In this document: one piece after another, positions 10,759 to 36,413 of the stretch
Layout of the letters: each line of letters begins with the position of its first letter
How positions within the stretch are numbered: position 1 is the stretch's first letter
Assembly: GCA_016699555.1 (NCBI GenBank)
Contig: CP064981.1
Span: 27,456 to 91,455, forward strand
DNA length: 64,000 nt
Reading direction: 5' to 3'
DNA from: Candidatus Iainarchaeum sp.
GTDB taxonomy: Archaea; Iainarchaeota; Iainarchaeia; Iainarchaeales; VGJJ01
Translations under genes and position numbers: made by a program
The notes under the pieces: generated by a model
The model's database searches: none
What the model was told of the DNA's origin: nothing
Seen by the model: only the letters and a program-made list of their open reading frames with translations

Positions 10759-10830
10759 GTATCAAGGATGAAATCCGGGTATTTAATCTTCGCGGCGGAT
10801 GCGCGTGCACACGCTTAAATCCATGCGCAC

Positions 10831-11928: not shown

Positions 11929-11947
11929 CAAGAGCCAAAAAACCCGA

Positions 11948-12295: not shown

Positions 12296-12389
12296 TCCAT
12301 CACCTTACAAGACCCACGCGACACGCGAAGCTTTTAAGCGAATCATATCCGCGCACGAAATATTTCGAACAAGTTTGACGATTGCCTAA

Positions 12390-14401: not shown

Positions 14402-14408
14402 AAGCTAT

Positions 14409-15848: not shown

Positions 15849-15987
15849 TCCCAGTGATACATCACCCCCGCACTCCTAAATATATAAGTCTTCGGCATAA
15901 TGCGCCAATAGAATAAGACAATTGTTGAATTATCCCCTACTGGCGCAAGGCCAAACCTAATATACGTCGGAAGCCGCAATCATCTGA

Positions 15988-18350: not shown

Positions 18351-18352
18351 TA

Positions 18353-18901: not shown

Positions 18902-19007
18902 AACTATTACTCATCCCCCAGAACTAAAACCCCATGGTTCCAACGCCCTAGCAATGGCGGTTTGGGGTTGGAATAGGGATAAGCTTGCACAAAACCGCGT
19001 GTAGTGC

Positions 19008-21061: not shown

Positions 21062-23425
21062 CTATTCCACTCTCGTCCCATGATCGATCGTCTTGATCAC
21101 GGGAATGGTCATCCCATCCTCATTCTTCTCGCGCTGCAAGAGATAGAGCGATCCCGTAGCGGATTTCTCTATTTCGGGATTGTGCGTGATCACGAAAATC
21201 TGATCCACCAATCCCGGCAAGCGCTCGCGGAGCATCTGCGAAAGCATGCCCACGGACTTGGTGTCGAGATTGTGCGTGGGTTCATCTAAAATCATCCAAC
21301 TCAGCTGGCGCGTCAACACGAAAGCGATGGCCATGCGCAAGGTCAGCGCAGCCGCGGAGCGTTCGCCTCCGGAAAGAGAAGACTCCACATCCACCCAATT
21401 CCCTAAACGCTCTTGCACGCGCAACACATAATCATTCTCATCCGCGACGAGCTGGGCATGGATGTAATCGCGATAGGGATAGACTTGAGGCCACAATTCC
21501 TGCAAGGCCAGATTCACCGCTTCCAATACCCACTCGCGCAATTGCTGTTGAGTGGAGATGAGTGCGTTTCCCCACACGCGCATGGCCTCCTCCACTTCCT
21601 TGGAGCGCTGCAACCGCGCCAGCATGCGCTCTTTTTCCTTCTGCATGAGATCCATCCCCTGCAGGCGTGCGTGAAGGTCCTTCAGCGCCTGTTCGATGGC
21701 AATGAGTTCGCGCTCAAATGACTGCAATTGCGTGTGCATACGCGTATGCTCTTGCGAAATGGCCACGACATCCGATTCCGAAATGGAAAACCACTCCATC
21801 TGCTTCTGGTTGGAGTCCAACTCCAACCCTATTTTCCCCAATTCCTGCACACGCAACGCATTCTGGAGGGCCAAATCGATGGCGTGCGATTCTTTTGAGA
21901 CCGCATCGAGGTCGGCTTGCGAAATGGTATTTCCCATTGCAGTTAGAGCAGCTTTTGTAGTTATTGTTTCGTTTTTTGCGGTTTCTAACTCTTTTTCCAC
22001 TCGCAACAACTCTGCACATTTTGATTTTAGCACGGCAATGGATTGTTGCTTGGATTGGTTTTCCTTTAATTCATTTTTGATTAATTGTAGTTCTTGCACC
22101 AGTGATTGTGTTTGCATTGAGAGGGATTGTTGTTCATTTTGAATGGCAGTGCGTTGTGCGTGTAATTGCAATAACAGTGATTGTTTATGCTCATTTGAAA
22201 TCGTTTGTTTACATGTGGCACAAGAAGCATGCAAGCTGGCCAGATTCTTTTCTTCTTCGTGCGAGTGTTTGAGTTTCTCTTGTAATGCGAATGACTTGGA
22301 CTTTGATTCTTGGATCAGCGATTCTTTTTCCCCAATCTTTTGCTCGCAAGAGGATAACTGTCCAAGAATCTGCGTTTCAACAAATTCAACCTCCTCTATG
22401 GTGCGATTCTGAATACTCTGAAGAAGCTGGTGATGGTTTTTTTGGAGCAACTCTTCCTTCTGGATTGCCTTTTGAAGCCTTAATTCGGCCATTTGGTGCT
22501 GTTTCTGCTTTTCAATCAGACTACGATAACGTTCCAAAACAGCCTGTTTTTGGGACTGTAAATCCGCATGGGTTTTCCCTGCGAAAGAAGGATTTTCGCT
22601 CTCAAATTGAGCCACTTGGTCGCGATACAATTGCTGCTTAGCATGCAATTGTTGCTGCTTTTCTTTCAATAACTTCAATACCTTCCAATCATCTTCCATT
22701 TTCATTTTCTTTTTAGCTAACTCGACGAGTTCATCCGCCACGCGCACTTTCTGGGATTGCAATTCCTTCAAGTGCAGCGATTGCTGCGCATGACGCGAGC
22801 GGAGCTCGTTCACATCGGTCTGCTGCAGCACCAGATCCAACTGCGCCAGCTGCGCCGCATCATTCTCTTGTTTGCGCTTGAATTGAAGCGCAACTTGATT
22901 GGCGTTGTTCCTGACGATCTCATACTTCTGCAGATCCAACAGCTCATCGAATTTCTTCTTCCGCTCGCCGGGGTTGAGCTTGAGAAAATAATCGACTTGG
23001 TTCTGTTCCGAGTAAACGCCGCGCACGAACAATTCATATGAGACGCCTAATTCCTGCTCCACTCTTTCGGTCGTTTGCGTGGGTTTAGGGCCGGCGATGA
23101 GGGTTTCATCCGCATATAACCGGCCTTCATTGATCCCATTGCGTTTCAGAACACGCTCGACCTTGTACTTCTTTCCATTCTTGGAGAAACAAACCTCGAT
23201 CTTGGCAATGTCAGCCGTTGAAGGCTTTCGCGTCAAGAGATCCTCCGAGGAGACGCGCGAGGACTTGAGCGCGGGAAAGGTCCCATAGAGGCCATAGCAG
23301 ATACCGTCGAGCACCGAAGACTTGCCTGAACCGATGACCCCCACGAGGACATTGGTTCCCTTTCTAAAATTGAAAGTAGAGCGCTTATGCGTCTTCCAAT
23401 TCTCTAAAACAAGCGAGTCGATCAT
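21062..23425 (-). CDS. rad50: Rad50 ATPase (SMC-like, zinc hook)
   Basis: N-terminal Walker A NVLVGVIGSGKSSVLDGI, long coiled coil with central CATCKQ hook, C-terminal signature SGGERSAAALTLRMAIAF and Walker B ILDEPT. Confidence 0.8.
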   Translation of the reverse strand: MIDSLVLENWKTHKRSTFNFRKGTNVLVGVIGSGKSSVLDGICYGLYGTFPALKSSRVSSEDLLTRKPSTADIAKIEVCFSKNGKKYKVERVLKRNGINEGRLYADETLIAGPKPTQTTERVEQELGVSYELFVRGVYSEQNQVDYFLKLNPGERKKKFDELLDLQKYEIVRNNANQVALQFKRKQENDAAQLAQLDLVLQQTDVNELRSRHAQQSLHLKELQSQKVRVADELVELAKKKMKMEDDWKVLKLLKEKQQQLHAKQQLYRDQVAQFESENPSFAGKTHADLQSQKQAVLERYRSLIEKQKQHQMAELRLQKAIQKEELLQKNHHQLLQSIQNRTIEEVEFVETQILGQLSSCEQKIGEKESLIQESKSKSFALQEKLKHSHEEEKNLASLHASCATCKQTISNEHKQSLLLQLHAQRTAIQNEQQSLSMQTQSLVQELQLIKNELKENQSKQQSIAVLKSKCAELLRVEKELETAKNETITTKAALTAMGNTISQADLDAVSKESHAIDLALQNALRVQELGKIGLELDSNQKQMEWFSISESDVVAISQEHTRMHTQLQSFERELIAIEQALKDLHARLQGMDLMQKEKERMLARLQRSKEVEEAMRVWGNALISTQQQLREWVLEAVNLALQELWPQVYPYRDYIHAQLVADENDYVLRVQERLGNWVDVESSLSGGERSAAALTLRMAIAFVLTRQLSWMILDEPTHNLDTKSVGMLSQMLRERLPGLVDQIFVITHNPEIEKSATGSLYLLQREKNEDGMTIPVIKTIDHGTRVE

Positions 23426-23508
23426 GACATAGGACTATGCGGTCGATGATGAATAAAAAACTAGAGAAAGGAGAATGCCAAAATAGAAACAAAAAATGAT
23501 AATTTATT

Positions 23509-23530
23509 GGGTTATTGATTACAATAACCC
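23509..23530 (-). terminator. 9-bp stem hairpin (gggttattg att a caataaccc) followed on the minus strand by a T-rich tract; candidate terminator for the EF-1beta/Zn-ribbon transcript
   Basis: Perfect palindrome read directly; T-rich run cattttttgtttctatttt follows on the minus strand. Confidence 0.3.
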
Positions 23531-23559
23531 ATTCTCGGCGCGTCCGGTCGAAACACGGA

Positions 23560-23820
23560 CTACAACAACGTCATCCCTTCGACTTCAACGGAGTCAACGG
23601 ATGGCATGGATTCGATTTCTTTTGTCAACGCGTCCAAGACACCATCTACCTTTTCGGGGATAGTGTAAGCGACTTTCAATACGACGATTCCAAAACCAAT
23701 CGGGGCTTCTTGGACGTCTCTGCATTCGCCGTTCTTGGCGGTGCGCAAGGCATTCTTGGTGGTTTCAAGGTCTTCCATGTCCTTGGGGTTGACTTTGTAA
23801 ATGACGATGATTTTTCCCAT
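23560..23820 (-). CDS. ef1b: Translation elongation factor aEF-1beta
   Basis: MGKIIVIYKV...start and 86-aa length are typical of archaeal EF-1beta. Confidence 0.65.
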   Translation of the reverse strand: MGKIIVIYKVNPKDMEDLETTKNALRTAKNGECRDVQEAPIGFGIVVLKVAYTIPEKVDGVLDALTKEIESMPSVDSVEVEGMTLL

Positions 23821-23870
23821 GCTTTGCTCACCTACGATTGTTTTGGTTAATGAACGGACTAAAGATGAAG

Positions 23871-24029
23871 TTAAGGACCCATGAACTGGCAGTCAGGGCA
23901 CTTATAGGAGCGGGCAGTGGTTCGGCAGTGCATGCAGCGGACGATCTTGTGCTTGCTACAATTGGGGCACTTGAACTCGATAAAGTCGGATCCGACTTGC
24001 ATATTACAGGAGGTACAGGTTTTCACCAT
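23871..24029 (-). CDS. Small Zn-ribbon protein (two CxxC pairs) commonly linked to aEF-1beta
   Basis: MVKTCTSCN...CPNCS...CMHC...CPDC. ORF track start 24125; the internal ATG at 24029 is preferred. Confidence 0.5.
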   Translation of the reverse strand: MVKTCTSCNMQVGSDFIEFKCPNCSKHKIVRCMHCRTTARSYKCPDCQFMGP

Positions 24030-24167
24030 TTCAGAACACCTTAGATAACCAAAAACCCCTGGCAATCGTTTATAAAACGAAGCCCGAGGCTTCCGCGCAT
24101 ATGCCCCCACACAGGCCCAAAACACCCATTTATAGGGTTATTTTGAGTGTTTTCTTCTAATGCCTAG

Positions 24168-24242
24168 GGCCCCGTAGCTTAGGCTGGATAGAGCGCCAGG
24201 CTTCGGACCTGGAGGTCGGGGGTTCAAATCCCTCCGGGGTCG
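24168..24242 (+). tRNA. tRNA-Arg (anticodon TCG), no encoded CCA
   Basis: Manual cloverleaf: acceptor GGCCCCG/CGGGGUC, D-arm GCUU..GAGC, anticodon stem CCAGG/CCUGG with loop CUUCGGA (U34 C35 G36), T-arm GGGGG-UUCAAAU-CCCUC, discriminator G. TATA-like tttatag lies about 33 bp upstream. Confidence 0.8.
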
Positions 24243-24252
24243 CTTTTTTATT
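24239..24252. repeat. Left 14-bp direct repeat (TSD) gtcgcttttttatt; overlaps the last 4 nt of the tRNA-Arg and its oligo-T terminator
   Basis: Identical 14-mer at 34627..34640. Confidence 0.8.
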
Positions 24253-24284
24253 GGGATATATACAGCTGCCGCGTTTGAGACTTT
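24253..24284. repeat. Left terminal inverted repeat (32 bp) gggatatatacagctgccgcgtttgagacttt
   Basis: Exact reverse complement present at 34595..34626. Confidence 0.85.
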
Positions 24285-24322
24285 TACAACATAATTATCA
24301 GATTAATAGGGCAGTAACATTG

Positions 24323-25528
24323 CTAAAGAGAATCTGTTGAATTATTTTTGTTTGAGATTGAGTTTTCAATATTCCCTACTGGATTTATTTTATTGTAGTG
24401 GTTCCAATCATTTAGCTGTTGTATAATTCTTTCCGGAATTTTCAAGCCAAGTAGGCGATAAATTATATTTAGAATAAGACAATCAAGAAAATATTCAAAT
24501 CGATTTATTGTGTAAAACGGCATTTTTTTACGTTTAACATTTTCAATTATTATTTTTAGCAGTGGTTCTCCATGACTATAATTATTCCTAAGCTTATACG
24601 TCTCTTTAATTGTTTCATAAAATAGTTCCCATTTTAAATCAGTATATTTCCTAATGAAAACTTCAGCCTTTTTAGTAATTGTATCATCTTTAATAGTTGA
24701 AAGCAAATATTCAACATCTTCATCACTCAACTTAAATTCTTCTTTGTACTTCGTTTTTACATCAGTTCTAATTTTATTTTTGACATTTTCAAAATAGCTT
24801 TTATAATCACGCAGATGGGCGTTAATGATCATTTCAAATAAAGCCCATTGAAAAATAGCCGCGTCATGCGATTCCAAAAATTCTTTATTTCTATTAAACA
24901 AAAAATGAGTAAATAGCATTGAACTAATCCATGCAGAATTTTTTTGATATTTATTATCCCCAATTGCATCAACAAGATTTTCAATTTCTAGTCTTGTCAG
25001 CTCAAAATTTAATTTTTTATATCTCAACTTCCTGGATAAAGGGCTTTCTGTTAGATATCCTGTTTGAGTTCTCTCATCAGCAAATAAATACTTCTTCTTT
25101 GTGCCCCCTACTAGAAATTCAATTAGCTGCATTGATGACACTTCATACATTTCAGCTATGGTTAGATAGAAATCAAGTTCATGATTAGGTGTATCTGCGT
25201 TAATTTTTCGATCGTTAATTAAATCGCCAAAGTTGTGGTTTGGTTCTTTGAAGTATTCTATTAATGGAATTTTAAAAATTAAAAAATACTTGTTGTTTAA
25301 TTCATAAAATAAATCTTGGAATTCTGAAGGGTGACGCAAATCAAAGATACTTTTTGCATTGAAATATTTTTGTTCAGGAACAATTACTTTTTTGATCCCC
25401 AACTCGTTTTTACAATAGTTTTGAAAGCTTTCAACCTTAATTAATTCAAAGAAACGCGTTTTTAGTTCAGGTATTTCATTTACTGAATCAAATTGAGCAA
25501 TTACTTTCACGTCTTTTGCATTAGCCAT
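24323..25528 (-). CDS. Casposon cargo protein, possible HEPN-domain (Abi-like) protein
   Basis: C-terminal KLRNNYSHGEP contains an Rx4H HEPN-type motif; otherwise unrecognised; AT-rich codon usage. Confidence 0.4.
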   Translation of the reverse strand: MANAKDVKVIAQFDSVNEIPELKTRFFELIKVESFQNYCKNELGIKKVIVPEQKYFNAKSIFDLRHPSEFQDLFYELNNKYFLIFKIPLIEYFKEPNHNFGDLINDRKINADTPNHELDFYLTIAEMYEVSSMQLIEFLVGGTKKKYLFADERTQTGYLTESPLSRKLRYKKLNFELTRLEIENLVDAIGDNKYQKNSAWISSMLFTHFLFNRNKEFLESHDAAIFQWALFEMIINAHLRDYKSYFENVKNKIRTDVKTKYKEEFKLSDEDVEYLLSTIKDDTITKKAEVFIRKYTDLKWELFYETIKETYKLRNNYSHGEPLLKIIIENVKRKKMPFYTINRFEYFLDCLILNIIYRLLGLKIPERIIQQLNDWNHYNKINPVGNIENSISNKNNSTDSL

Positions 25529-25534
25529 AAATGG

Positions 25535-26533
25535 TCATGGATATTTTAGGAGTTGATTATTTATTTTTACAGTTGAAATATTGCAGTCAATAATATTAGA
25601 TGGTAAATTACATTGAATAATTGTAGTGGTTTTTGATTTTAGGACTCTATCAAACTCACAACTATTGCTAGCAAATGAATTTTCCATGCTATTTATATCG
25701 ATGCACGTCATCGATAGATGAGTCATAATAGCTTCGTCGTTTGTTGCATTATACAGATATATGTTTGCATTTCCATCTCGCACAATGGAACCACGAAATG
25801 GAAAATCATGGACTGTCAAATCGTAAGGGTTTGAAACGAGTTGACTTACTGGCAACATAGTGAAAATGACAACGAGAATAACCGCATAGACTCTCGAGAT
25901 TGATGTATCTTTTGACAACCCATTGAATATTTGTCGTTCCAAGTAATACAGCAACACTACAAATATTGCAAACTTAAGGAAGTCAGTACTGGTGATGACT
26001 AAATAGATTCCCCAGCCAATGAATCCCATTAGCACCAAAAATAATAGTAGACAGATAATCTTGTGTTTTTCGACGAAGTCATTTGCTCCATCCCCTAAAT
26101 TTTTTTGAACTTTCTTTAATTTAGTCTTGAGCTTTTTCAGATACCCTTCTAGGCTGGCCAAATAAATGATTATTTCAATAATTGCTTGAAGTACACTCGA
26201 TATTTTCTTGAATCCTTTATCTAACTCCTCATAGGTTCCGCGCACAATCAGAAATGCAAGTGAATAAGATAGAGTGAAAAAGTTAGTGAACATGACGATG
26301 AAGTTAAACCCATATAACTGGAATTTGTCATTCAGAATCAGTATTGAAGCTATGAAAACCAGTACGTAGGTCAAACCACCAAGCAAAATTACTTCTTTTG
26401 CAAGGTTTGTGGGGGTCGGCTCATCCTTTTCATTCCATTTCTTCGCCAAGAACAACAAGTATCCTGAAATAATCGTGAAAACGACCACCGAAGGAGTTGA
26501 AAAGATGAAGTTCTGAAAAATATCTTCAAGCAT
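25535..26533 (-). CDS. Casposon cargo polytopic membrane protein
   Basis: Roughly 7 hydrophobic helices; no domain. Confidence 0.45.
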   Translation of the reverse strand: MLEDIFQNFIFSTPSVVVFTIISGYLLFLAKKWNEKDEPTPTNLAKEVILLGGLTYVLVFIASILILNDKFQLYGFNFIVMFTNFFTLSYSLAFLIVRGTYEELDKGFKKISSVLQAIIEIIIYLASLEGYLKKLKTKLKKVQKNLGDGANDFVEKHKIICLLLFLVLMGFIGWGIYLVITSTDFLKFAIFVVLLYYLERQIFNGLSKDTSISRVYAVILVVIFTMLPVSQLVSNPYDLTVHDFPFRGSIVRDGNANIYLYNATNDEAIMTHLSMTCIDINSMENSFASNSCEFDRVLKSKTTTIIQCNLPSNIIDCNISTVKINNQLLKYP

Positions 26534-26578
26534 ATAAATGGTAAAATGGCTTCTTTTTATAATCCGAACATGAAAAAA

Positions 26579-27763
26579 TCATTCTTCGCGGACTTTCCCT
26601 AAGGTCTTTTCATATAACTTGAATATTTTTCCACTTTTTGCATTCTTTTTCATGTAATGCAATGTCCCTTTATGCAAACCATGCTCGTATGCTTTATGAT
26701 AGGGAATTGCCAGAATCTTTTGTCGCAATTCCTCTGAATCAACTCTCTTTAATTCAAACTTAGGATTGGTAAAATCAATCTCTCTCTTTTCAAAATATTT
26801 TGTAAGTTCACGTGCTTTAATGAGTATTACATTATGCCAGCTTGACATGCCTCGATCAAATTCAACTTTATTGTTGAATTGTGTTTCAATTTCCTTTAGT
26901 AGCTTCTTTGCACCACTTGGGCGCAATTTTAGATTGTAGTTTTCGGTTCGAATAAAATCTTTTGCGCTGAAAACTTCTTTTTCAATCGCTGAAATAACTG
27001 CTAAATCAATGAGAAAGCGATACGGTTCTTGTAAGTCGTAAGCCAAAGAGTTATTTCCTGAATGTTTTTCATGCATATATCCAACATGTTGATCAAGTCC
27101 GACTGCATTAATGGCCTTTAGGCATTCAGCTTCTAGAATAGAATAGCCATAGTTGAGTAAGCAATTAATTACATCACCTGCACCGCGTGGCTTCTTTTGA
27201 TATTCTCTTGTTTCAAATTCTAACTTTTCTGGGAATATTTTTGTAAGTTCTTGCCAGTAAAAGGAAGCAACTCTCCCCTCAATCATCATAATCTCAGGTA
27301 TATCTTTTACTTGTTCAATCTTATTCCATTCATTACTGAAATCCGTTTTAATTTCAGGATACTTGGGTTTGAGATAATCTAATACTAATTTTGTCCGTGC
27401 AAACTTGGCATTAATTAAAGCTTTTGAAATTTTGACACGTTCAATATAATTTTCATAAATTTTGTACTGATTAAATTTCGTTTGCACATTGGTGCTTTCA
27501 GGAGGCAATAATGTAGTTAGAAGTTTTCCATTCCAGTCTAAGAAAGAAGCCTGAATGCCATGTTTGACAAGCCAACGAATTGCATCTATGGTGATGTTTC
27601 CGTCTTGGCCATAAATAATCACATTATCCACGTCAATTCTTCGAGGTGAATAAATATATTGAGTAGGTTCTTTTCCAAATTCTGAAAAACCGTCTTTGAC
27701 ATGCAGTTTTGCTTTTTCCACTTTCAGATTAATCCCATGGCCATTAAGTAATAACAATTTCAT
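26579..27763 (-). CDS. cas1: Cas1-family integrase (casposase)
   Basis: Cas1 core MMIEGRVASFYWQ (catalytic Glu), DVINCLLNYGYSILEAECLKAINAVGLDQHVGYMHEK (His), LAYDLQEPYRFLIDLAV (Asp); 394 aa with a C-terminal extension as in casposases; no CRISPR array nearby. Confidence 0.8.
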   Translation of the reverse strand: MKLLLLNGHGINLKVEKAKLHVKDGFSEFGKEPTQYIYSPRRIDVDNVIIYGQDGNITIDAIRWLVKHGIQASFLDWNGKLLTTLLPPESTNVQTKFNQYKIYENYIERVKISKALINAKFARTKLVLDYLKPKYPEIKTDFSNEWNKIEQVKDIPEIMMIEGRVASFYWQELTKIFPEKLEFETREYQKKPRGAGDVINCLLNYGYSILEAECLKAINAVGLDQHVGYMHEKHSGNNSLAYDLQEPYRFLIDLAVISAIEKEVFSAKDFIRTENYNLKLRPSGAKKLLKEIETQFNNKVEFDRGMSSWHNVILIKARELTKYFEKREIDFTNPKFELKRVDSEELRQKILAIPYHKAYEHGLHKGTLHYMKKNAKSGKIFKLYEKTLGKVREE

Positions 27764-28119
27764 GCAACTTCACCCTTCATACTTTCTTTTGTTCTGCTAT
27801 ATGCCGCAGCATCACTTCGAATTGACTTTAACCAACCCCTTTGTTCATCTTCAAGTGTAAGAGAAAATTCGACCAAGGCTTTCTTGTATAGCTCAAGCAC
27901 GCCATGCCAACGTGAGGCTTCGAAGAAAGTACTAAATGCAGTTCTTTGATAGTCTTTTATCACCCATTTTAGCCAATGGATTGCTTTTTCGCTTTCAGCA
28001 GTTGCAAAAAGCATTAGGATTAGTTTTCCATATGCTTTGAATATGGATGCCTCGTCTACTTTTTTATCAAACTCGTTAAGTATTTTGTCAAGATTTTTTT
28101 GGACGTATCCCAGCGTCAA
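27760..28119 (-). CDS. Casposon hypothetical protein
   Basis: 119-aa ORF, ATGA-type overlap with cas1. Confidence 0.4.
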   Translation of the reverse strand: MTLGYVQKNLDKILNEFDKKVDEASIFKAYGKLILMLFATAESEKAIHWLKWVIKDYQRTAFSTFFEASRWHGVLELYKKALVEFSLTLEDEQRGWLKSIRSDAAAYSRTKESMKGEVA

Positions 28120-28582
28120 GGTGATTCATTAGTAAAATGGCGGTTGTTTCTAAAAGTTTTTCATTTTTGGTGCGCGCGACTATTCGTTCAACCTTTTCCA
28201 ATGTTTCCCAATTTAATTTTACGCGTTGTACATCTCCTAACTCCTCTAAAGCAACTAATTGTTTCTTTTCATCATCTGACGCAAGTATATCAAGAATTTT
28301 CGAGTAAAATTCGTTTTCATTTGGTAAAGTTGAAAGTGCATAAAAAATTGCATTTTCTCTTTTTTCTTTTATTCCATAAGCTTGGAAGTCATTGAATTTT
28401 ATTCGTATAATCTTCTTGTCAACATCACGCAATTCTTGGATTGCTTTGTAAATTGAGGGTTTTGATCTGCCGAGCGGCATTGCATCGCCAATTTTGCCTA
28501 TTTTTTCGAAGATTTGGTCTGAAGACTGAATCTTCTCTTTCGCCAGTAAGTCGATGATTTCTTGTTTTATGCTATCACGCAT
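28088..28582 (-). CDS. Casposon putative winged-HTH DNA-binding protein
   Basis: N-terminal SIYKAIQELRDVDKKIIRIKF helix-turn-helix-like segment. Confidence 0.4.
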   Translation of the reverse strand: MRDSIKQEIIDLLAKEKIQSSDQIFEKIGKIGDAMPLGRSKPSIYKAIQELRDVDKKIIRIKFNDFQAYGIKEKRENAIFYALSTLPNENEFYSKILDILASDDEKKQLVALEELGDVQRVKLNWETLEKVERIVARTKNEKLLETTAILLMNHLDAGIRPKKS

Positions 28583-28621
28583 GCTCTCACTTCGGTCTCT
28601 TTTGCTCTCACAATTAAGTAT

Positions 28622-28666
28622 AATTACTATAACTTATGCTATCAATTACTATATAATAGTTGCTAT
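28622..28666. promoter_or_regulatory. Divergent AT-rich intergenic region with two imperfect direct repeats (aattactata..tgctat, about 22 bp apart) between the HTH and RHH genes
   Basis: aattactata at 28622 and 28644, tgctat at 28637 and 28661; candidate operator/TATA elements. Confidence 0.3.
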
Positions 28667-28700
28667 ATTCCAGGTCTGCTCCAATGTATGTGGTGATCCC

Positions 28701-28871
28701 ATGAGTGGACGTAAACTTGTCATAACCTTGAATCCAAGCCTTAAACGTGGACTGGAGGAGGCATCAAAGCGCAGGAAATGCTCGCAAGCTGAAATTGTGC
28801 GTGGCCTCCTCTATCAAAATCTTGCCCCTTACTTGAAAGAGGTGGAAGCTGATGCCCAAACGCTTCTCTAA
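28701..28871 (+). CDS. Ribbon-helix-helix (CopG-like) DNA-binding protein
   Basis: MSGRKLVITLNPSLKRGLEEASKRRKCSQAEIVRGLLYQ is the classic RHH beta-strand plus two helices. Start chosen at ATG 28701, not the ORF-track start. Confidence 0.45.
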   Translation: MSGRKLVITLNPSLKRGLEEASKRRKCSQAEIVRGLLYQNLAPYLKEVEADAQTLL

Positions 28872-29484
28872 ACACTACAAAACTTTTTCCGACTGGAAAA
28901 AAGGACGGAAACTAACGAAATATAGTAAGAAAATAATTGAAAATCGAGCCATATTTCCAAAATCTACCTTGAAGAGGCTCAGGACTGGAATCTCCAACTT
29001 TTCCACAAAAAAATGGAATGTATTGAATTCCACTCAAAAAGTGCATCGAACAAATGCATTGAACACACTTTCTGAAATACGGAAAGGAAACTCACTCCTA
29101 AAGACGCTTAAAAAATATGGTTATTCATTAGAAAGAATAAAAGAACACTTAGGAAAAACGATTCATTTCCAAAACAATAAGTGGATTAGTAGATCACGCG
29201 ATTCAATTGAACGTTCAATGGTTATTTATGAAAATGGAAAACGAAAAGCAATTCTTGTTAATGATTCAAAGACTGCATCACGAATTGGAGAGTATTATAA
29301 TTCAGTAAAGAAGTTTTTACAAACAGGAAACGAGAAGGAATTACATAAAATAAACACAAAAATCATCGACTCAAATGGTAACACTCATTACTTAGAAACA
29401 AATCCTAAAAAGATTTTAGAAATTGAAGAAGCAAAGGAAGAACCCGAATTCACAGAAATATATTCAGAGGAAGATTCTCCATGA
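28852..29484 (+). CDS. Casposon basic Lys/Ser-rich protein immediately upstream of HNH and PolB (function unknown)
   Basis: 210-aa ORF overlapping the RHH gene stop and the HNH gene start (operon). Confidence 0.45.
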   Translation: MPKRFSKHYKTFSDWKKGRKLTKYSKKIIENRAIFPKSTLKRLRTGISNFSTKKWNVLNSTQKVHRTNALNTLSEIRKGNSLLKTLKKYGYSLERIKEHLGKTIHFQNNKWISRSRDSIERSMVIYENGKRKAILVNDSKTASRIGEYYNSVKKFLQTGNEKELHKINTKIIDSNGNTHYLETNPKKILEIEEAKEEPEFTEIYSEEDSP

Positions 29485-29813
29485 TGAAGTGTTTGCTGTG
29501 CATTGAAACTGAAGAAACAGTCCCACTTCGATTTGAAATGCACCACCTATCTGGTAGAAAATATTCTGACGAAACAGTTCCACTATGCCCAAACTGTCAC
29601 GCTAAAATAACAAAAATTCAAAACAAATTTCCTCCAAAGATACGTTCACAAAAGAATCGCAAAGACACATTAATTTTCAGTATTACAAGCACAACCGCGC
29701 TCATGAAAACGGGGGCTGAAAACGGCCTTCGTATGCTAAAAGAATTAACGGAGCTGATACAAAATGACTCAAAAAATAGCCGTGAGAATCTTGTCGAACA
29801 AGAAAAACAATGA
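29481..29813 (+). CDS. HNH endonuclease
   Basis: CLLC...HH...VPLCPNCH is the HNH zinc/ββα-Me motif. Confidence 0.7.
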   Translation: MMKCLLCIETEETVPLRFEMHHLSGRKYSDETVPLCPNCHAKITKIQNKFPPKIRSQKNRKDTLIFSITSTTALMKTGAENGLRMLKELTELIQNDSKNSRENLVEQEKQ

Positions 29814-32370
29814 AAAACAAGAGTATATTCCAAAAATTGTCTCTCCATATCAAGGCGTACTCGTTTTTGATTGTGAAACAACAACAGATGCAGTTCAAAA
29901 CCTAAAATTTGGCTCATACCAGTATCGTGTTAATGACATCATTCAAGATATTGGCATTTTTTACAACCCTACTGAGGTAACTGCAGAAGAACTAAACTAC
30001 CTTCAAACTGCTAGCAGTCAAAAACTAATCCAACTGTATACACGCGAACAATTTGTTGCCAAACTAGCTGACTACGCCCTGAAGATACGGGCACTATGTA
30101 TTGGACACAACTTGGTATTTGATATTTCGCGATTATGTGTTGGAACGGGATATTGTAGAGGCGCGTACAACAGCGGATTTTCACTCAAACTATCGGAAAA
30201 CAAAAGTATTCCTCGCATTAAAACAACGCGTATCAATGAGCGAAAAGTATTATTACGATTTGGAAAAGCATTAGATGGCACGAACTTTGGAGGCCATTTT
30301 TTAGATACCCAAACGTTAGCCTCGGCATTATTGGACACTAAACACATTTCATTGAACGCGTTGGCAAAGGAGCTTGGAATCGATGAGCAAAAATTAGAAG
30401 TAGAAAAACATGGAATGATTACACCGCATTATATTGACTATAATTTGAATGATGTGATGCTTACTTATTTGGTTTTTGCAGAACTAAAGAAAAAATATGA
30501 AGAATACGGTCTCAGCTTACCGATAACAAAAGTCATTTCAGGTGCATCCATTGGAAAAGCGTTCCTGCGAAAAATGGGAATAAAGTCTTTCCTTGAGCAA
30601 AACAAAACATTCCCCATGGAAGTATTAGGGCAATGCATGTCAGCCTATTTTGGTGGGCGTTGCGAGGTAAAAATGCGAAAAACGCCTGTACGAACAACAG
30701 TATTAGACTTCACAAGTATGTACCCAACTGTTTGTCATCTAATGAATCTTCAACGATTCATGCTAGCTAAAAGAATTGATACACAAAAAATAAATGTACA
30801 GAAACTATTAGAAGAATTGACCCCTGAAAAATTATTTGATCCAAAAACATGGCCATCACTTCTCATTTTATGCAAAATAAAACCAAACAAGGACTGTTTA
30901 CCCGTACGTAGCGACTATGGTGGAAAAACGCTCAACGTGGGAGTCAATTATTTTACATCAAGTGAATCTTTTTACTATTGGTTGCCAGACTTAGTATATA
31001 GCAAGTTCATAACTGGAAAAACCTCAGTAATTGAGGAAGCTTTGGAATTTGTTCCTGTTGATGTTCAGGAAACGGTAAAACCAATAAGTGTCTTTGATGT
31101 GGAATTTAATCCGTTGAAACATGACTTTATTCATAATCTGGTTCTACAACGAAACAAATTGAAAAAAGTGAATCCCGTTCAGGCGCAGGGATTAAAAATT
31201 TTGGCTAATGCCACTTCTTATGGCATTTTTGTCGAATTAAACCCAGAAAAAGAACCATCCCCACTAACTGTTTATTCGAGAAAAGTTTTTGAAACAAATT
31301 CTATACATGAGCAAGCAGGTGAATTCTTCAATCCGATTGTTGGCGGACTGATTGTTTCGGGGTCAAGGTTGCTATTAGGAATGATAGAGGTTGAGCTAGC
31401 AAAAATTGGCAAGACCCATTATGCGTGTGACACCGATTCAATGTTCGTTCCGCCTGAAACGGCTGATTACTTGCAAGAAAAATTTCAACCTTTATCACCT
31501 TATCAAGGACATATATATTTACACGAGAAGCAGGCAGATCAAACTCCTATATATTTACTAAAGAAGGAGTACGAAAACGTGTGGTTCTATGGTGTGAGTT
31601 CCAAAAGATATGTTCTATTCGAGAAAAAGGGCACGAAACTAAAGATTCTCGACCAAAAAGGAAAGAAAGGATACAAGCTACATGGACTTGGGTATATCCT
31701 CAATCCCTTTGGCAAAGATCCTGATTGGCATAAACAATTCTGGGAAGATGGACTGAAACTGCACTACAATCAGCTATCAGAACAGGATATCATTGCAAAG
31801 TATGGACAATACTATTGTATATCACAATTAACAGTCTCCAGTTGGGATGCTTATCGCCGATTTCGATACTTCAACAAAGGAAAACCTTTTCGAGAGCAGA
31901 TAAAACCGTTCAATTTTATGCTATTGGGGTTTGGTCAACAAAATGATGTCAAACCATTAGCACCTTACACGAAAAACTATCAAGCAATCGTTCACGAACC
32001 ATTTATTGACTACAAAACAGGCAAAACTTTGATTGGGATTGAATATTGGCAAAACTTGGCAGATGTATTTTTCAATTACTTTAATCATCCCGAAGCAAAA
32101 ATGGATGGTACTGTTGGCTTGCTAAGACTTAAGTACGTGACTTCTGACTTGACTGCTTATATAGGGAAAGAAGGGCGCGATATTGACACGCAAATCATGC
32201 GTAAAAGTCCAATTACGGCCGTTATTCCTCAAAAGGATCTGCATACATATGTATGTATGTTGACGAAAGAAGAGGCAAAGCAACTTCATATTTCACGAGC
32301 AACTTTTTATCGCTTGAAAAAGAATCCAGAGAAACTTTCTGTTGCCATAATACAAAAATTGTTACATTAA
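29764..32370 (+). CDS. polB: Family B DNA polymerase with 3'-5' exonuclease motifs (casposon PolB, likely protein-primed type)
   Basis: Exo I VFDCETT, Exo II YNLNDVMLTY, motif A LDFTSMYPTV, motif B KILANATSYGIF, motif C YACDTDSMFV. Confidence 0.85.
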   Translation: MTQKIAVRILSNKKNNEKQEYIPKIVSPYQGVLVFDCETTTDAVQNLKFGSYQYRVNDIIQDIGIFYNPTEVTAEELNYLQTASSQKLIQLYTREQFVAKLADYALKIRALCIGHNLVFDISRLCVGTGYCRGAYNSGFSLKLSENKSIPRIKTTRINERKVLLRFGKALDGTNFGGHFLDTQTLASALLDTKHISLNALAKELGIDEQKLEVEKHGMITPHYIDYNLNDVMLTYLVFAELKKKYEEYGLSLPITKVISGASIGKAFLRKMGIKSFLEQNKTFPMEVLGQCMSAYFGGRCEVKMRKTPVRTTVLDFTSMYPTVCHLMNLQRFMLAKRIDTQKINVQKLLEELTPEKLFDPKTWPSLLILCKIKPNKDCLPVRSDYGGKTLNVGVNYFTSSESFYYWLPDLVYSKFITGKTSVIEEALEFVPVDVQETVKPISVFDVEFNPLKHDFIHNLVLQRNKLKKVNPVQAQGLKILANATSYGIFVELNPEKEPSPLTVYSRKVFETNSIHEQAGEFFNPIVGGLIVSGSRLLLGMIEVELAKIGKTHYACDTDSMFVPPETADYLQEKFQPLSPYQGHIYLHEKQADQTPIYLLKKEYENVWFYGVSSKRYVLFEKKGTKLKILDQKGKKGYKLHGLGYILNPFGKDPDWHKQFWEDGLKLHYNQLSEQDIIAKYGQYYCISQLTVSSWDAYRRFRYFNKGKPFREQIKPFNFMLLGFGQQNDVKPLAPYTKNYQAIVHEPFIDYKTGKTLIGIEYWQNLADVFFNYFNHPEAKMDGTVGLLRLKYVTSDLTAYIGKEGRDIDTQIMRKSPITAVIPQKDLHTYVCMLTKEEAKQLHISRATFYRLKKNPEKLSVAIIQKLLH

Positions 32371-33065
32371 TTTTCAATTTCCTTATCTATTATAGTTATT
32401 ATCTCGTCCAAGTAACGAATAAGCTGATTAAGTGATTCTTCAGTAGCATCGACACCTAACTTTTCTTTATTAGCAATTAATTCCAATTTATCTTTTGCAT
32501 TTTGAAATCTTATTTTTACGCCTAAGAAAATGTCTTTTGCTTCTTCATAGTCAACTTTTGTCGGATTATTGACAAGCAGTATCTTCTTCCCGCCAGTTAC
32601 AAAATCTTCTAAACCTTTCACAACTTCCTCTTGAATATCTAAACTCAATTGGAGATCCGTACGAAGTTGCTGATCATATGTGAGCACTTCTTTTGTTTTG
32701 CCTAAAAGCCACCGCATCTCTGATAATTCCGCCTTTGCTAAAGGAATAATTGCATCAGCTTCATCAAAATGGTTGAATTCTATGTAAGCAAAAATTACTC
32801 CAAGATAATATGCAAAAGAGGCGTGGCGTCTTTCATAATCAATACTAATTTCTTTTACTTTTTCTAATTCTATATTATAATTATTTATTCCTGCTTCTAA
32901 ATTTTGGATTTGCTCTTTTTGGGACTGTGTTTCAAAATAAAGATTTCCTGCAGCAATCAATAGAAATAATAGTATCACTCCGTATATCCCTTGAGTTGAG
33001 GGGTTTTGATGATTTTGCATAGTGCTTGATCTCGTATGGTTTTTTTCGTCCATTGTAACGTTCAC
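32367..33065 (-). CDS. Casposon membrane-anchored coiled-coil protein
   Basis: N-terminal TM helix (IYGVILLFLLIAAGNLYF) plus coiled coil. Confidence 0.4.
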   Translation of the reverse strand: MNVTMDEKNHTRSSTMQNHQNPSTQGIYGVILLFLLIAAGNLYFETQSQKEQIQNLEAGINNYNIELEKVKEISIDYERRHASFAYYLGVIFAYIEFNHFDEADAIIPLAKAELSEMRWLLGKTKEVLTYDQQLRTDLQLSLDIQEEVVKGLEDFVTGGKKILLVNNPTKVDYEEAKDIFLGVKIRFQNAKDKLELIANKEKLGVDATEESLNQLIRYLDEIITIIDKEIEN

Positions 33066-33135
33066 CCAGGCTCAAAACTACGTTCGTTACGTTGATGTTA
33101 CGCTACTACTTATTAAGGGGTTATGCACCCCTTAT

Positions 33136-33387
33136 ATGTACGAACTTCTGAGCTACATTCGAAGAAGCTCAATAAAACGCAAAATTCTACAAAATTTACA
33201 GGAAGCTAAAACTCCAACAGATTTGAAGAAGGCTCTAGGGGTTCATAGGGAAAGTATCTCAAGGGCACTATTAGAGTTGGAGGAAAGAGGACTAGTTGAA
33301 TGTCTGACCCCAGACCAACCAAATTATCGCTATTACAAAATTACAGAAAAAGGAGATAAACTGTGTAAGCAGCTGAAAAATTACTGA
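33136..33387 (+). CDS. Small winged-HTH transcriptional regulator (PadR/ArsR-like)
   Basis: MYELLSYIRRSSIKRKILQNL...RALLELEERGLVEC; start at the internal ATG 33136. Confidence 0.45.
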   Translation: MYELLSYIRRSSIKRKILQNLQEAKTPTDLKKALGVHRESISRALLELEERGLVECLTPDQPNYRYYKITEKGDKLCKQLKNY

Positions 33388-34508
33388 ATTAGAACATGAT
33401 CCTCATCTAGTGAAGAACTCCAAACTTCGCTTTTCCATTTTTTCTTCCTTTTTGTTGGCATGTAAAAATTGTGGCTATCTTCCTCGATTTGTTTTAGCAT
33501 TTTTCTAATATTCTTCTCAAGTTCTGTTTTTGGTTTATACTTATATATTTTGCCATAAGCATTTGGGATCTTTTTAGCAATTTTTTTAGCCCACTCCACT
33601 TTCGGAATTTCAATTTTGGGGTCATATACCTTGATTGTTGCTAAAATATCTTTTTTTGACTTATTAGTTCTCTTAATTTCCTTAATGCTAATTTCTTTAT
33701 TGATTAGTTCTGATAACAACGGAATTGAAAAATCAACTGGCACCGAATCTTCAAAATTTTTCTTCCAAATAATAACTCTTCGCTTATCAATTAAACCAGC
33801 AGACACTAAATCATTTACAAATGAAATTACAGATTTATCATAATCAAGAACTAAGTAGTATTGAATGCCAGGAATCCTATATCTTCCAAGCAGTTCTTTT
33901 ATGGCTTGCTTCTTTACAGCGTCCTTGCCTTGTAAATTGATAATCTCATGGTCTCGAAATAGATTGAATTGATTTTTGTTAAAAAGAATTTCAAATGCTT
34001 CTTTCTCCGACTCGCCTTCAACCAGAATATAAAATTTAGGCTTTAAATCTTTTTGAAGTTTACCTAAACTAACAGTAAACTTGCTTACACCTTGAAGTAA
34101 TAAACCACTCCAGACTAAATGATTTGTTAATTGCATACCCTCATGATAATGCATCCTATCGTCAGTAGTGTAGTTATCTACCCACCTTACAGAAGCCCAG
34201 TGTACTTCAATAAATGAAAGAGATAATTTTACCAGTATTTCAACGTAATACTGATTTTGCAAATCAAATAGATATTGCACTGAATCAATAAAATTGTTTA
34301 AAAGTGTTTTTAGTTTTGGACAACTATCCATTGTCCCCCTATGTCCAAATACACAACTTCTCCCTCTTTTTGGATAACATGCGGGAAGATGACCTCCCAG
34401 GTGGGTTTTTAGATCTTCTAAAGTGTTAACATTTCTGAAGTCTAACTCTTGATTCATTGCCATCCAAAAAATTTTCAGCGACTTCGCATTGACAGAAACA
34501 TCTTTCAT
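33381..34508 (-). CDS. Casposon cargo protein with a C-terminal Toprim-like domain (OLD/DUF4435-like)
   Basis: FYILVEGESEKEAF (Toprim Glu) followed about 55 aa later by YYLVLDYDKSV (DxD); N-terminal Cys/His-rich segment. Confidence 0.4.
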   Translation of the reverse strand: MKDVSVNAKSLKIFWMAMNQELDFRNVNTLEDLKTHLGGHLPACYPKRGRSCVFGHRGTMDSCPKLKTLLNNFIDSVQYLFDLQNQYYVEILVKLSLSFIEVHWASVRWVDNYTTDDRMHYHEGMQLTNHLVWSGLLLQGVSKFTVSLGKLQKDLKPKFYILVEGESEKEAFEILFNKNQFNLFRDHEIINLQGKDAVKKQAIKELLGRYRIPGIQYYLVLDYDKSVISFVNDLVSAGLIDKRRVIIWKKNFEDSVPVDFSIPLLSELINKEISIKEIKRTNKSKKDILATIKVYDPKIEIPKVEWAKKIAKKIPNAYGKIYKYKPKTELEKNIRKMLKQIEEDSHNFYMPTKRKKKWKSEVWSSSLDEDHVLIQ

Positions 34509-34594
34509 TTAACAAGCAACTGTTTTTCTAATTTAATCTTATATGGTATTGATGAGAAAAAAATAGCCCCACACCATTACCAAATTATGTTGTG

Positions 34595-34626
34595 AAAGTC
34601 TCAAACGCGGCAGCTGTATATATCCC
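34595..34626. repeat. Right terminal inverted repeat (32 bp), exact reverse complement of the left TIR
   Basis: aaagtctcaaacgcggcagctgtatatatccc. Confidence 0.85.
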
Positions 34627-34640
34627 GTCGCTTTTTTATT
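34627..34640. repeat. Right 14-bp direct repeat (TSD) gtcgcttttttatt
   Basis: Identical to 24239..24252. Confidence 0.8.
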
Positions 34641-34661
34641 TCTAGAATATTTCTTAGCAAC

Positions 34662-35618
34662 ATGCCAGGACGAAAACCACTTCGTAGCAAGAAATCAAGC
34701 ACTGGATTACCCAAAAGAAGAACAAAACCTCAAATTGTCACCCCGGTAATAACATCCGATGGAAGTATTTTGATCCACCCATCGCATTATCAAAGTAGTC
34801 ATTTTGGCAGCAGACTAACACTGCTTCAAAAAAGACTGTTGGCCACACAAGAAAGGCTGATCGCCGAAGACAGTAGGCACGACAACCACCTCATTGCCAT
34901 GCGCCATGCCGACGAGTGGCACCATCAACGAGCCCATCATGACGGGGATAGCACATATATCGCCAATGATCGTATGCGAGTGGCGAAACATTATGCCCCG
35001 ATTCACACACTCTTAGAACTCGTCGGCGGGAGAGGATTAAAGGGAAAGAGCATCCTGCATGTGGCTGGGTCGACGGGAGTGTATGCGAGATATCTACGCG
35101 ATCAGCTCCAGATGCGACCGGTCGTACTCGACATCGACCGCCTGTCCCTTCACGATGCGCATCATGAAAGACAGATTAAGACAGTGGTGCGCGCGAATGC
35201 CATTATAGAAAAAAAACATACGGGCCGATACATCATTCCCAGAGGAAAACGGATTGCAGTCCCGGAATATGAAACCACGCGCTTGCCATTCGCCGACAAA
35301 AGCTTCAAATTCGTGATAAGCGATCACTTCCTGTTTGCGAACTATCATCGCGGCGTAGGCGGATTCGAGTCCCACGGGGGATCAATCGAAAGAAGCGAGG
35401 AAACGCTTCCCGAACTCAATCGTGTCCTGGAAAAAGGAGGATACGCGATCATCGGGTCGATCCATGGGCAGAGCTTGTCCGATATTAGAAGATATCAAGT
35501 CGGACATACCATCCATGGCTTCGTAGTTGAAAGGGCATACGATGGATATCTTTCCCCCGTTGCGAAAGGAAACCCGCCTATTTTCATCATCCTGCGCAAA
35601 GTAAGGGAAGCGGAATGA
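34662..35618 (+). CDS. Class I SAM-dependent methyltransferase
   Basis: ILHVAGSTGVYARYL (motif I-like), LPFADKSFKFVIS, LNRVLEKGGYAII. Confidence 0.55.
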   Translation: MPGRKPLRSKKSSTGLPKRRTKPQIVTPVITSDGSILIHPSHYQSSHFGSRLTLLQKRLLATQERLIAEDSRHDNHLIAMRHADEWHHQRAHHDGDSTYIANDRMRVAKHYAPIHTLLELVGGRGLKGKSILHVAGSTGVYARYLRDQLQMRPVVLDIDRLSLHDAHHERQIKTVVRANAIIEKKHTGRYIIPRGKRIAVPEYETTRLPFADKSFKFVISDHFLFANYHRGVGGFESHGGSIERSEETLPELNRVLEKGGYAIIGSIHGQSLSDIRRYQVGHTIHGFVVERAYDGYLSPVAKGNPPIFIILRKVREAE

Positions 35619-35623
35619 CGGAT

Positions 35624-36346
35624 TCAGTGATCGGTAAATCCGCCATCGACTACGATTGTTTGCCCCATGATATAGGAAGCGGCGTCGCTGGAAAGGAATG
35701 CGACGGTCTCCGCGATCTCAGCGGGCTTCCCCATGCGCCCTTCGGGGATTATTTTAATCATCCCTGCAGCCGCATCCTTTGTCAAACCCGCTTTCACTCC
35801 GGGCGTTTGGATGGCCCCAGGAGCCACCGCGTTCACGTGGATGTTGAACGGGATCAATTCCAATGCCAGTGCGCGCGTGAAACCCATCAAACCCGCTTTC
35901 GTCGTGCAATAGTGCACGAGCCCAGGAAATCCTACTTGCGTTCCTGCGATGGAGGCGATGTTCACGATCTTTCCATACTTCTGTTTCTGCATGTAGGGAA
36001 GGACGGCTTTGGTGGTATTGAATACGCCATTCAAATTGACATCCATTACTTTATCCCACTCCTGCCTGGACATCTTGGAGAAAGATTGGAAGGGATAGAT
36101 TCCCGCGTTGTTCACCAAAATATCCACGCGCCCAAATTTCTTGATCGTGTTCTCCACGAGGTGTTGGCAGTCCTTCCATTCCGACACATTAGCGGTCACA
36201 TGATGGTGCTTGCTGGCGCGCGACTTGCTGGAGCATACGACCACTTTGGCGCCATAACTCGCCAGCGTATCAGCGATCCCTTTTCCGATTCCTTTGGTTC
36301 CGCCCGTGACGATGGCGACTTTTCCCTTCAAGCTAATCATGTGCAT
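35624..36346 (-). CDS. Short-chain dehydrogenase/reductase (FabG-like)
   Basis: [16 protein letters not shown] Rossmann motif, NNAG, YxxxK catalytic region. Confidence 0.8.
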
Positions 36347-36413
36347 CCACCTCTATAGCGAGGAAGGAAATTCGGATAATAAATAACCTAGTATCGACTC
36401 CGATACTAGACGC

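Follow-up and report, generated by a model that had tools for sequence, protein, structure and literature searches.

Casposons are self-replicating transposons that use a Cas1-type enzyme for their integration, and the adaptation machinery of CRISPR is presumed to descend from them. To our knowledge, only a few dozen of them have been described, almost all in methanogens, Thaumarchaeota and a few bacteria. Here we analyze a stretch of 64,000 nucleotides (nt) of contig CP064981.1 from Candidatus Iainarchaeum sp., hereafter the window, in which all coordinates are given. Positions 24253-34626 of the window, a span of 10,374 bp, very probably hold a family-2 casposon that is essentially intact and has been integrated into the chromosome of a DPANN archaeon.

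Family-2 casposons are characterized by a casposase (a Cas1 homologue) with a helix-turn-helix (HTH) tail, a family-B DNA polymerase (PolB) that is not protein-primed, an HNH nuclease and two conserved HTH proteins, one of them with HEAT repeats (Krupovic 2014, 2016). They are bounded by inverted repeats, and the characterised members have a target-site duplication of 14-15 bp. Their sites are intergenic or lie in the 3'-distal 4-7 nt of a tRNA gene, which stays intact, and their PolB has been described with a C-terminal HTH similar to that of Cas1 (Krupovic 2014, 2016). The active site of the Methanosarcina mazei casposase consists of E162, H232 and E247, and the C-terminal HTH domain of this enzyme is essential (Hickman 2020). 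Transposition in vivo has so far been demonstrated only for MetMaz-C1 (Gehlert 2023).

A preliminary description of the window had proposed a complete casposon of about 10.4 kb with all hallmarks at 24253-34626, and all of these features are indeed found at that place. The borders and the target of the element are the following.

24253..24296, forward strand: left terminal inverted repeat, GGGATATATACAGCTGCCGCGTTTGAGACTTTTACAACATAATT, with the terminus GGGATATA as in family-2 casposons.
34583..34626, reverse strand: right terminal inverted repeat, which ends ...TATATCCC; confirmed in the independent contig L051 (see below).
24168..24243 (ARAGORN) or 24168-24242 (Rfam, 62.8 bits), forward strand: tRNA-Arg(TCG), the integration target.
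34627..34640, no strand: distal copy of the target-site duplication; a host methyltransferase gene (34662-35618) has its ATG 21 nt downstream.

The inverted repeats, initially given as perfect over 32 bp, are perfect over the 32 outermost nt and in fact extend to 44 nt, one mismatch being followed by 11 more matches (43/44 complementary). Within the window the terminal 14-mer GGGATATATACAGC is confined to both ends of the element, with 0.18 occurrences expected by chance. The 14-bp duplication reported at the 3' end of tRNA-Arg(TCG) is exact: copies of GTCGCTTTTTTATT at 24239-24252 and 34627-34640 abut both repeat arms. For a 14-mer, agreement at a fixed position has a chance probability of about 9e-9. 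The final 4 nt of tRNA-Arg (GTCG, 24239-24242) are the initial 4 nt of the duplication, and the tRNA gene is complete. The guanine-plus-cytosine (GC) content of the element is 34.7%, against 51-52% in the flanks.

The sequence at the distal copy (window 34627-34662 region) is CTTTTTTATT. The duplicated T/A-rich segment may act as the terminator of the tRNA gene and as a TATA-like promoter element of the methyltransferase gene, in which case the duplication would preserve both. A promoter and terminator scan, based on a bacterial consensus, gave counts at the level of shuffled sequence and was uninformative.

The right end of the element was recovered in a separate short-read assembly (SRR11674035). 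Logan contig L051 of this assembly is 100% identical to window 30195-34974 and extends through the right repeat and the duplication into 334 nt of host flank. Thus the right junction, being reproduced independently, is not an artefact of a single assembly. Logan contig L001 from the same source equals window 24455-28825 but for one base: it has one base fewer in the T7 homopolymer at 28094-28100.

Two genes form the leftward operon of the core.

26579..27763, reverse strand: casposase (Cas1 homologue), 394 amino acids (aa), extended at its C-terminus by an HTH region; Pfam Cas_Cas1 3.7e-63 over aa 13-293.
27760..28582, reverse strand: conserved family-2 core gene upstream of cas1, with an HTH-like N-terminus and a helical region.

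The NCBI annotation of the former is 'CRISPR-associated endonuclease Cas1'. Its best PDB match is the casposase of M. mazei (6OPM, E 1.2e-141, aa 1-391), and the best match to a CRISPR Cas1 has an E-value of 1.8e-34. Together with the failure to find cas2, these values speak against a place among the CRISPR Cas1 proteins, which had been named beforehand as the finding that would overturn the casposon. The catalytic residues E162/H231/E246 are the counterparts of E162, H232 and E247 in the M. mazei enzyme. Past the Pfam Cas1 domain, which ends at aa 293, about 100 aa align with the C-terminal region of 6OPM up to aa 391. The protein is at most 67% identical to any database protein, the two closest (67% and 63%) both coming from uncultured samples, and it is about 50-57% identical to the casposases of Methanosarcinales. 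The product of the core gene upstream, taken as the 273-aa protein encoded by L001, matches a profile of its positional equivalents from six relatives with an E-value of 2e-9 (profile positions 9-255 of 290).

The rightward genes include the polymerase operon and, beyond it, a second regulator.

28701..28871, forward strand: small ribbon-helix-helix (RHH) protein, 56 aa from an internal ATG; Pfam RHH_1 E 0.019, below cut-off.
28852..29484, forward strand: orf210, a conserved 210-aa family-2 core protein with homologues in 12 related elements.
29481..29813, forward strand: divergent HNH (beta-beta-alpha-metal) nuclease, 110 aa, overlapping the start of polB; pattern CxxC...HH...CxNCH.
29764..32370, forward strand: family-B DNA polymerase of the 'PolB_CDTDS' type, 868 aa, with an intact 3'-5' exonuclease and a C-terminal helical (HTH-like) tail; assigned by motifs, homologues, profile and model.
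33022..33387, forward strand: winged-helix transcription regulator; Pfam HVO_A0261_N 7e-9, HTH_45 and MarR_2.

The 868-aa polymerase has no significant match in Pfam, NCBIfam or single-sequence PDB searches. All motifs expected of a family-B polymerase, including the YACDTDS noticed at the outset, are nevertheless found in this single open reading frame (ORF): Exo I FDCET, Exo II HNLVFD, Exo III YNLND, A DFTSMYP, B KILANATSYG, C YACDTDS and KxY as KRY. Among the 464 database homologues are "DNA polymerase" genes from Methanolobus, Methanococcoides and Methanosarcina, which are about 40% identical. Identity to any database protein is at most 69%, the closest two (69% and 49%) being from uncultured samples. 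A profile built from 24 homologues matches exclusively family-B polymerases in the PDB. The AlphaFold model (predicted local distance difference test, pLDDT, 87; predicted template modelling score, pTM, 0.83) gave the same result in Foldseek: all 50 matches listed are family-B polymerases (E 1e-14 to 2e-11), namely phi29, Pol II, Pol alpha, 9°N/KOD and RB69. The tail is helical in the model and has a weak match to HTH_26 (aa 838-866, E 7e-4). A divergent PolB_CDTDS cluster, kin to the main and the protein-primed PolBs, has been defined around the polymerase of the Aciduliprofundum boonei casposon (Kazlauskas 2020), and the 868-aa protein fits this cluster.

The HNH and the two regulator genes of the preliminary description are likewise recognizable, with unequal clarity. 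The Pfam HNH match of the 110-aa protein is not significant (E 2), and the other matches are weak (PHROG HNH families, 9e-4 to 9e-3; a PADLOC endonuclease, 4e-4). The pattern is kept in 10 relatives, and the best PDB match of the family profile is the HNH domain of McrA (6GHC, E 5.7e-4), so the predicted HNH assignment of this divergent protein holds. Homologues of orf210 lie directly upstream of HNH-PolB in the 12 related elements (E 1e-27 to 1e-43). The family-2 core as published contains two 'HTH proteins', of which orf210 is probably one. Pfam found no HTH either in orf210 or in the 273-aa core protein. The RHH protein is encoded by the first gene of the RHH-orf210-HNH-PolB operon, and its gene is kept in L003 and L007-L009, which are among the related elements treated below. 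The longest ORF of the winged-helix regulator has 121 aa, and the gene call on L051 has 83 aa (about 33136-33387). Judged by these matches, the annotation as a winged-helix regulator is well supported and that as an RHH protein weakly.

The two operons face each other, (HTH/helical gene, cas1) against (RHH, orf210, HNH, polB), and the same layout is found in L002, L003, L005-L009, L027 and L028. Both conserved accessory genes of the family are present by homology and position, as orf210 and the 273-aa gene. There is no CRISPR array in the window, and the ORFs of the element and the seven flanking ORFs scanned (the main ones at 21062-24125 and 34662-37756) have no match to cas2 or another cas family, which bears out the original claim of a Cas1 homologue with its catalytic motifs but without a CRISPR array or other cas genes. 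We regard the element as a canonical family-2 casposon because this absence is combined with the casposase, PolB, HNH, core genes, ends, duplication and target of that family.

The element was compared with family-2 casposons of Methanosarcinales (MetMaz-C1 and MetMaz1FA1A3-C2 of M. mazei; elements of Methanolobus and Methanococcoides). They have in common the HTH casposase, the CDTDS PolB, the same HNH, 210-aa and HTH/helical genes, the divergent two-operon layout, the terminus GGGATATA / ...TATATCCC and a 14-bp duplication that begins 4 nt inside the tRNA 3' end. The geometry described for the M. mazei casposon, a 4-bp overlap and 14 bp (Hickman 2020), is the geometry found here. However, the duplication here starts with GTCG at tRNA-Arg(TCG), whereas theirs starts with the conserved CGCA of tRNA-Leu. 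The host here is a DPANN archaeon, the cargo is different (an OLD-like TOPRIM gene and orphan ORFs), the GC content is 17 points below that of the host, and Cas1 and PolB are only about 50-57% and about 40% identical, respectively, to theirs. AciBoo-C1 of A. boonei, the model for biochemical work on site-specific casposon integration, has a similar geometry and also sits at a tRNA 3' end with a duplication overlapping the tRNA by a few nt, but its target is tRNA-Pro, its duplication has 15 bp and its repeat sequence is another one.

Three other assignments were considered and rejected. Family 4 lacks an HTH-HEAT gene and has repeats of about 225 bp with a 35-bp duplication (Krupovic 2016); here the repeats have 44 nt, the duplication has 14 bp and the HTH/helical gene is present. 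Family 1 has a protein-primed PolB, a Cas1 without HTH and a target at the 3' end of the gene for archaeal elongation factor 2 (aEF-2), against an HTH tail, homologues of family-2 PolB and a tRNA. A CRISPR-Cas adaptation module was rejected as neither cas2 nor a CRISPR array lies beside Cas1.

We delimited several relatives of the element in other genomes: L002 (GCA_964602245) and L003 ("archaeon" WC462), both unclassified archaeal metagenome-assembled genomes (MAGs); L029, an Aenigmarchaeota MAG; and L005-L008 and L010, from Methanolobus and Methanosalsum genomes. In L028, a MAG labelled "Candidatus ainarchaeum sp.", only the right end is available and the element runs off the contig. The Woesearchaeota contig L027 has the core genes, and no element ends were found on it. 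In rough neighbour-joining trees, midpoint-rooted and built without family 1, 3, 4 or CRISPR outgroups, so that they show the closest database sequences only, both Cas1 and PolB group with L003, L004 and metagenomic neighbours in a small clade of uncultured sequences. The core genes of the casposons of uncultured archaea (L002, L003, L028 and L029) match those of the present element; these casposons differ in the tRNA or site and in the cargo, and their GC content is near that of their hosts. We found no description of these four in the literature searched.

The terminus GGGATATA and the 14-bp duplication are common to nine related elements. Every delimited element begins with GGG(A/T)TATA, and wherever both ends are available there is a 14-bp duplication whose copies are exact or deviate at no more than 2 positions. 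In L002, L003 and L029 the terminal 10-14 nt are GGGATATATA... as here and the 14-bp duplication is exact; L028 has GGGATATA. The sites of these four are tRNA-Gln (L002 and L003), tRNA-Thr (L028) and intergenic (L029). The eight tRNA-adjacent elements comprise one at tRNA-Arg (the present element), two at tRNA-Gln, one at tRNA-Thr and four at tRNA-Leu. In 8/8 of them the duplication starts 4 nt before the tRNA end and 12 nt past the T-loop box GTTCRAATC, and the duplicated sequence itself varies (GTCG..., GCTA..., GGCT..., CGCA...).

The way in which the element would have been inserted can be outlined from the M. mazei and A. boonei enzymes. The casposase would bind both inverted-repeat ends, which terminate 5'-...TATATCCC-3'OH, and the 3'-OH groups of the repeat ends would attack the two target strands 14 bp apart. 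Gap filling would then produce the 14-bp duplication and regenerate the tRNA end. The oligo-T-containing copy on the element side would keep the downstream sequence of the tRNA, and the distal copy would stay before the next host gene. Target choice would be guided mainly by the upstream T-arm and acceptor segment of the tRNA. Such tRNA-guided targeting has been shown experimentally for tRNA-Pro and tRNA-Leu in two model enzymes (Beguin 2016, Hickman 2020); in A. boonei a functional target comprises the duplicated segment together with the 18 bp upstream of it, which encode the T-loop (Beguin 2016). Since the register is constant while the duplicated sequence varies, the upstream tRNA segment is likely to position the enzyme in the present case as well. 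The element is presumed to be copied by its own family-B polymerase. Accessory or regulatory roles are likewise presumed for the HNH nuclease, for the 210-aa and HTH/helical proteins and for the RHH and winged-helix regulators.

The insertion appears to be recent, to judge by the exact duplication, the near-perfect repeats, the intact catalytic motifs and the 17-point GC deficit of the element. The gap between element and host is 0-12 points in the relatives, and the larger gap here suggests a recent acquisition from a low-GC donor. The element is presumed to be mobile.

Several points weigh against the reading as an intact family-2 casposon of a DPANN archaeon. The HTH/helical core gene is split in the window into ORFs of 164 aa and 119 aa by a 1-nt homopolymer difference, and Pfam shows no HEAT repeats in it. 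BLASTP finds no alignment between the C-terminal tails of Cas1 and PolB. Independent confirmation is limited to the right junction, the left one having none. An empty site (the tRNA end, a single copy of the duplication and the right flank) was not found among JGI metagenome contigs. No second copy was found either: the repeat pattern GGGATATATACAGC-N7-TTTG has 1 + 19 matches in viral and metagenome contigs, and these are chance matches without casposon genes, save L047, which is the L003 element. Finally, the host assignment comes from the NCBI label of a MAG. In addition, exact-protein look-ups of the methyltransferase, an SMC-like ATPase and orf401 (a cargo ORF), which were aimed at contigs with a junction or an empty site, found none. 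A casposase scan of genome contigs returned Methanosarcinales, Methanoregula and Thermoplasmatales only; as it works by exact peptide patterns, it recovered neither the source genome nor DPANN genomes.

Some of these points would fit an immobilised family-2 relic that is no longer able to transpose: the frameshift divides a conserved core gene in this assembly, the inverted repeats contain a single mismatch, and neither an empty site nor a second copy was found. However, the core gene is whole, as a single intact 273-aa ORF, in L001, a short-read contig that is otherwise identical, and the difference sits in a 7-nt homopolymer. The frameshift at 28094-28100 is thus probably a homopolymer error of long reads, and similar frameshifts may exist elsewhere in the contig. 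Moreover, the catalytic triad of the casposase is intact, as are all motifs of the polymerase, and the exact duplication and unameliorated GC content point to a young insertion. We therefore consider a relic unlikely.

The preliminary description also proposed an undescribed lineage or a new target specificity, and this part of it was not upheld. A new casposon family, distinct from family 2 and with its own specificity, could be suspected from the host outside Euryarchaeota, the identity of Cas1 (at most 67%) and PolB (at most 69%) to any database protein, the position of both in a small clade of uncultured sequences and the unique cargo genes. Against this, no tested family-2 defining feature failed, the features of family 4 are absent, and Cas1 is 50-57% identical to Methanosarcinales casposases. 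The core genes, the terminus GGGATATA and the 14-bp duplication are those of ordinary Methanosarcinales family 2. As for the target, the earlier statement that described family-2 casposons sit at tRNA-Pro is incomplete: Table S1 of Krupovic 2014 lists tRNA-Pro, tRNA-Leu, tRNA-Arg (MetArv-C1) and intergenic sites. The family-2 element MetArv-C1 of Methanocella arvoryzae MRE50 is likewise found at tRNA-Arg with a 14-bp duplication (Krupovic 2014), so this target is already on record. MetArv-C1 differs in its length of 14.5 kb, its 134-bp repeats starting GGGGATAATGATATCCCC and its duplication CCCGCTGGCTTTTA; since both repeats and duplication differ, it represents a different lineage at a different tRNA-Arg 3' end. 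On this evidence a new family is very improbable.

Still less credible is an assembly artefact in which a low-GC casposon of another organism was misjoined into a contig with 52% GC. The 17-point GC difference, the origin of the host contig from a MAG and the fragmentation of the element into short contigs in the Logan assembly could raise this suspicion. Nevertheless, 14 bp of host sequence are duplicated exactly on both sides of the element with the tRNA intact, and a chimera would not yield a duplication; the right junction with 334 nt of host flank is also reproduced at 100% identity in an independent assembly. The NCBI label 'CRISPR-associated endonuclease Cas1' and the fact that tRNA 3' ends are classic integrase attachment sites might suggest a CRISPR adaptation Cas1 gone astray, or else a plasmid or provirus inserted at the tRNA by a tyrosine integrase, but the probability of this reading is negligible: neither a CRISPR array nor cas2 nor any other cas gene is present, Pfam and PHROG scans of the element proteins reveal neither an integrase nor a capsid gene, the combination of inverted repeats and a short duplication is the signature of a transposase, and Cas1 is far nearer to the casposase than to any CRISPR Cas1.

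Apart from the core, the family-2 casposon at 24253-34626 carries genes that set it off from described casposons, as had been noticed before: four cargo ORFs (401, 332, 232 and 375 aa) have no counterpart in related elements. The cargo set is lineage-specific.

24323..25528, reverse strand: orf401, 401 aa, with an R-x4-H motif (RNNYSH at aa 314-319) and no family match.
25535..26533, reverse strand: 332-aa cargo ORF with long hydrophobic stretches in its translation, co-oriented with and directly downstream of cas1.
32367..33065, reverse strand: 232-aa cargo ORF; by inspection, the N-terminal segment is hydrophobic and a further region is rich in charged residues.
33381..34508, reverse strand: stand-alone OLD-like TOPRIM protein, 375 aa; Pfam OLD-like_TOPRIM 1e-4, relatives down to 7e-7.

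For orf401 there is no match in Pfam, NCBIfam or PHROG, and a search among 5.8e9 proteins retrieved the query alone. A weak PADLOC match to Csm6-like proteins (E 0.018, aa 224-372) was obtained, and orf401 may be a HEPN-type protein, a candidate HEPN RNase. The 332-aa ORF, without a family match in Pfam, NCBIfam, PHROG and PADLOC scans, apparently encodes a membrane protein, judging by inspection. The 232-aa ORF has sub-threshold matches only (Pfam, NCBIfam).

The TOPRIM protein has a Cys-rich N-terminus, in which C44, C52 and C63 are nearly invariant, and no ATPase domain. Over aa 158-340 it can be aligned with the C-terminal part of AAA_15/AAA_21+TOPRIM (OLD/Gabija-type) proteins. The protein is one of a small family with about 16 full-length relatives, and E164, G165, D222 and E253 are invariant. 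PADLOC gives a match to AbiLii (1.7e-4), and the best PDB match of the protein model is Gabija GajA, a weak one (E 3e-3). The gene is a candidate nuclease or defence-type gene carried by the casposon.

The host is labelled Candidatus Iainarchaeum / Diapherotrites (DPANN) by NCBI, in agreement with the DPANN-like features noted earlier; the contig has 1.05 Mb and the genome 52% GC. Archaeal host genes in the window include RFC, Nre, a Pelota-like protein and an HVO_2753-type zinc finger. We found no description of a DPANN casposon in the literature searched, in which journals are covered partially, and this is absence of evidence only. Family 2 was still given as euryarchaeal in a 2023 review. 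Mildly new are the host, a tiny DPANN archaeon of a phylum unreported for the casposons described so far, and the contrast between an element of 35% GC and a genome of 52% GC, which suggests recent acquisition; the type of element and the tRNA-Arg target are already known. The element is neither a new lineage nor a new mechanism, and the picture of what casposons are is unchanged.

What the locus adds is a clean, apparently young DPANN copy to the known casposons. In the comparison with its relatives, one conserved end, GGGATATA, and one fixed register, 14 bp from 4 nt inside the tRNA 3' end, are found across four tRNA species. This register leads to a testable hypothesis on how casposases measure their target, which by analogy may extend to Cas1 acting at leader-repeat junctions. 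In databases, elements of this kind at present carry the misleading annotations "CRISPR-associated Cas1" and "hypothetical protein".

A broader proposal is tentative, and we would rather bet against it: an undescribed, widespread population of family-2 casposons might exist in DPANN archaea (Iainarchaeota, Woesearchaeota, Aenigmarchaeota), with casposases that read a generic tRNA T-arm/acceptor end and thereby hop among tRNA-Arg, -Gln, -Thr and -Leu genes and among hosts, the present element being a fresh cross-lineage transfer. If this were true, an element with 35% GC would have been transferred into an Iainarchaeum with 52% GC, possibly via the symbiotic cell-to-cell contacts of DPANN archaea.

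Several observations on other casposon loci were made in passing. In an uncultured Methanolobus (L007) two different family-2 casposons stand in tandem at tRNA-Leu (3930-12290 and 12305-19831), and one 14-bp duplication sequence is common to both. The Aenigmarchaeota casposon of L029 (4173-13584, 9.4 kb) has repeats identical over the 25 nt compared, an intergenic 14-bp duplication and a shorter Cas1 of 311 aa. Contig L030, whose PolB carries the source label Nanoarchaeia, has casposon-type HNH and PolB genes at 9646-12637. No gene with a Cas1 Pfam match was called within 10 kb of them and no repeat pair was found; the locus may be a decayed or domesticated remnant of a casposon.

Elsewhere in the window, two copies of a 41-nt direct repeat (40/41 identical) are spaced by 9,224 nt. 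The one at 52053-52093 overlaps the gene for the RFC small subunit at its 3' end, and the one at 61277-61317 lies just downstream of the Nre gene. The interval contains a KaiC-like ATPase, a 332-aa ORF without a family match and an ORF of 2,396 aa. The repeats could be the border of another inserted block, in which no integrase was seen. The 2,396-aa ORF (54024-61214, reverse strand) has an NPCBM_assoc domain as its sole Pfam match and contains degenerate 36-nt repeats at 58827-60449 (8 copies, 64-81% identity); its product is probably a repetitive surface protein.

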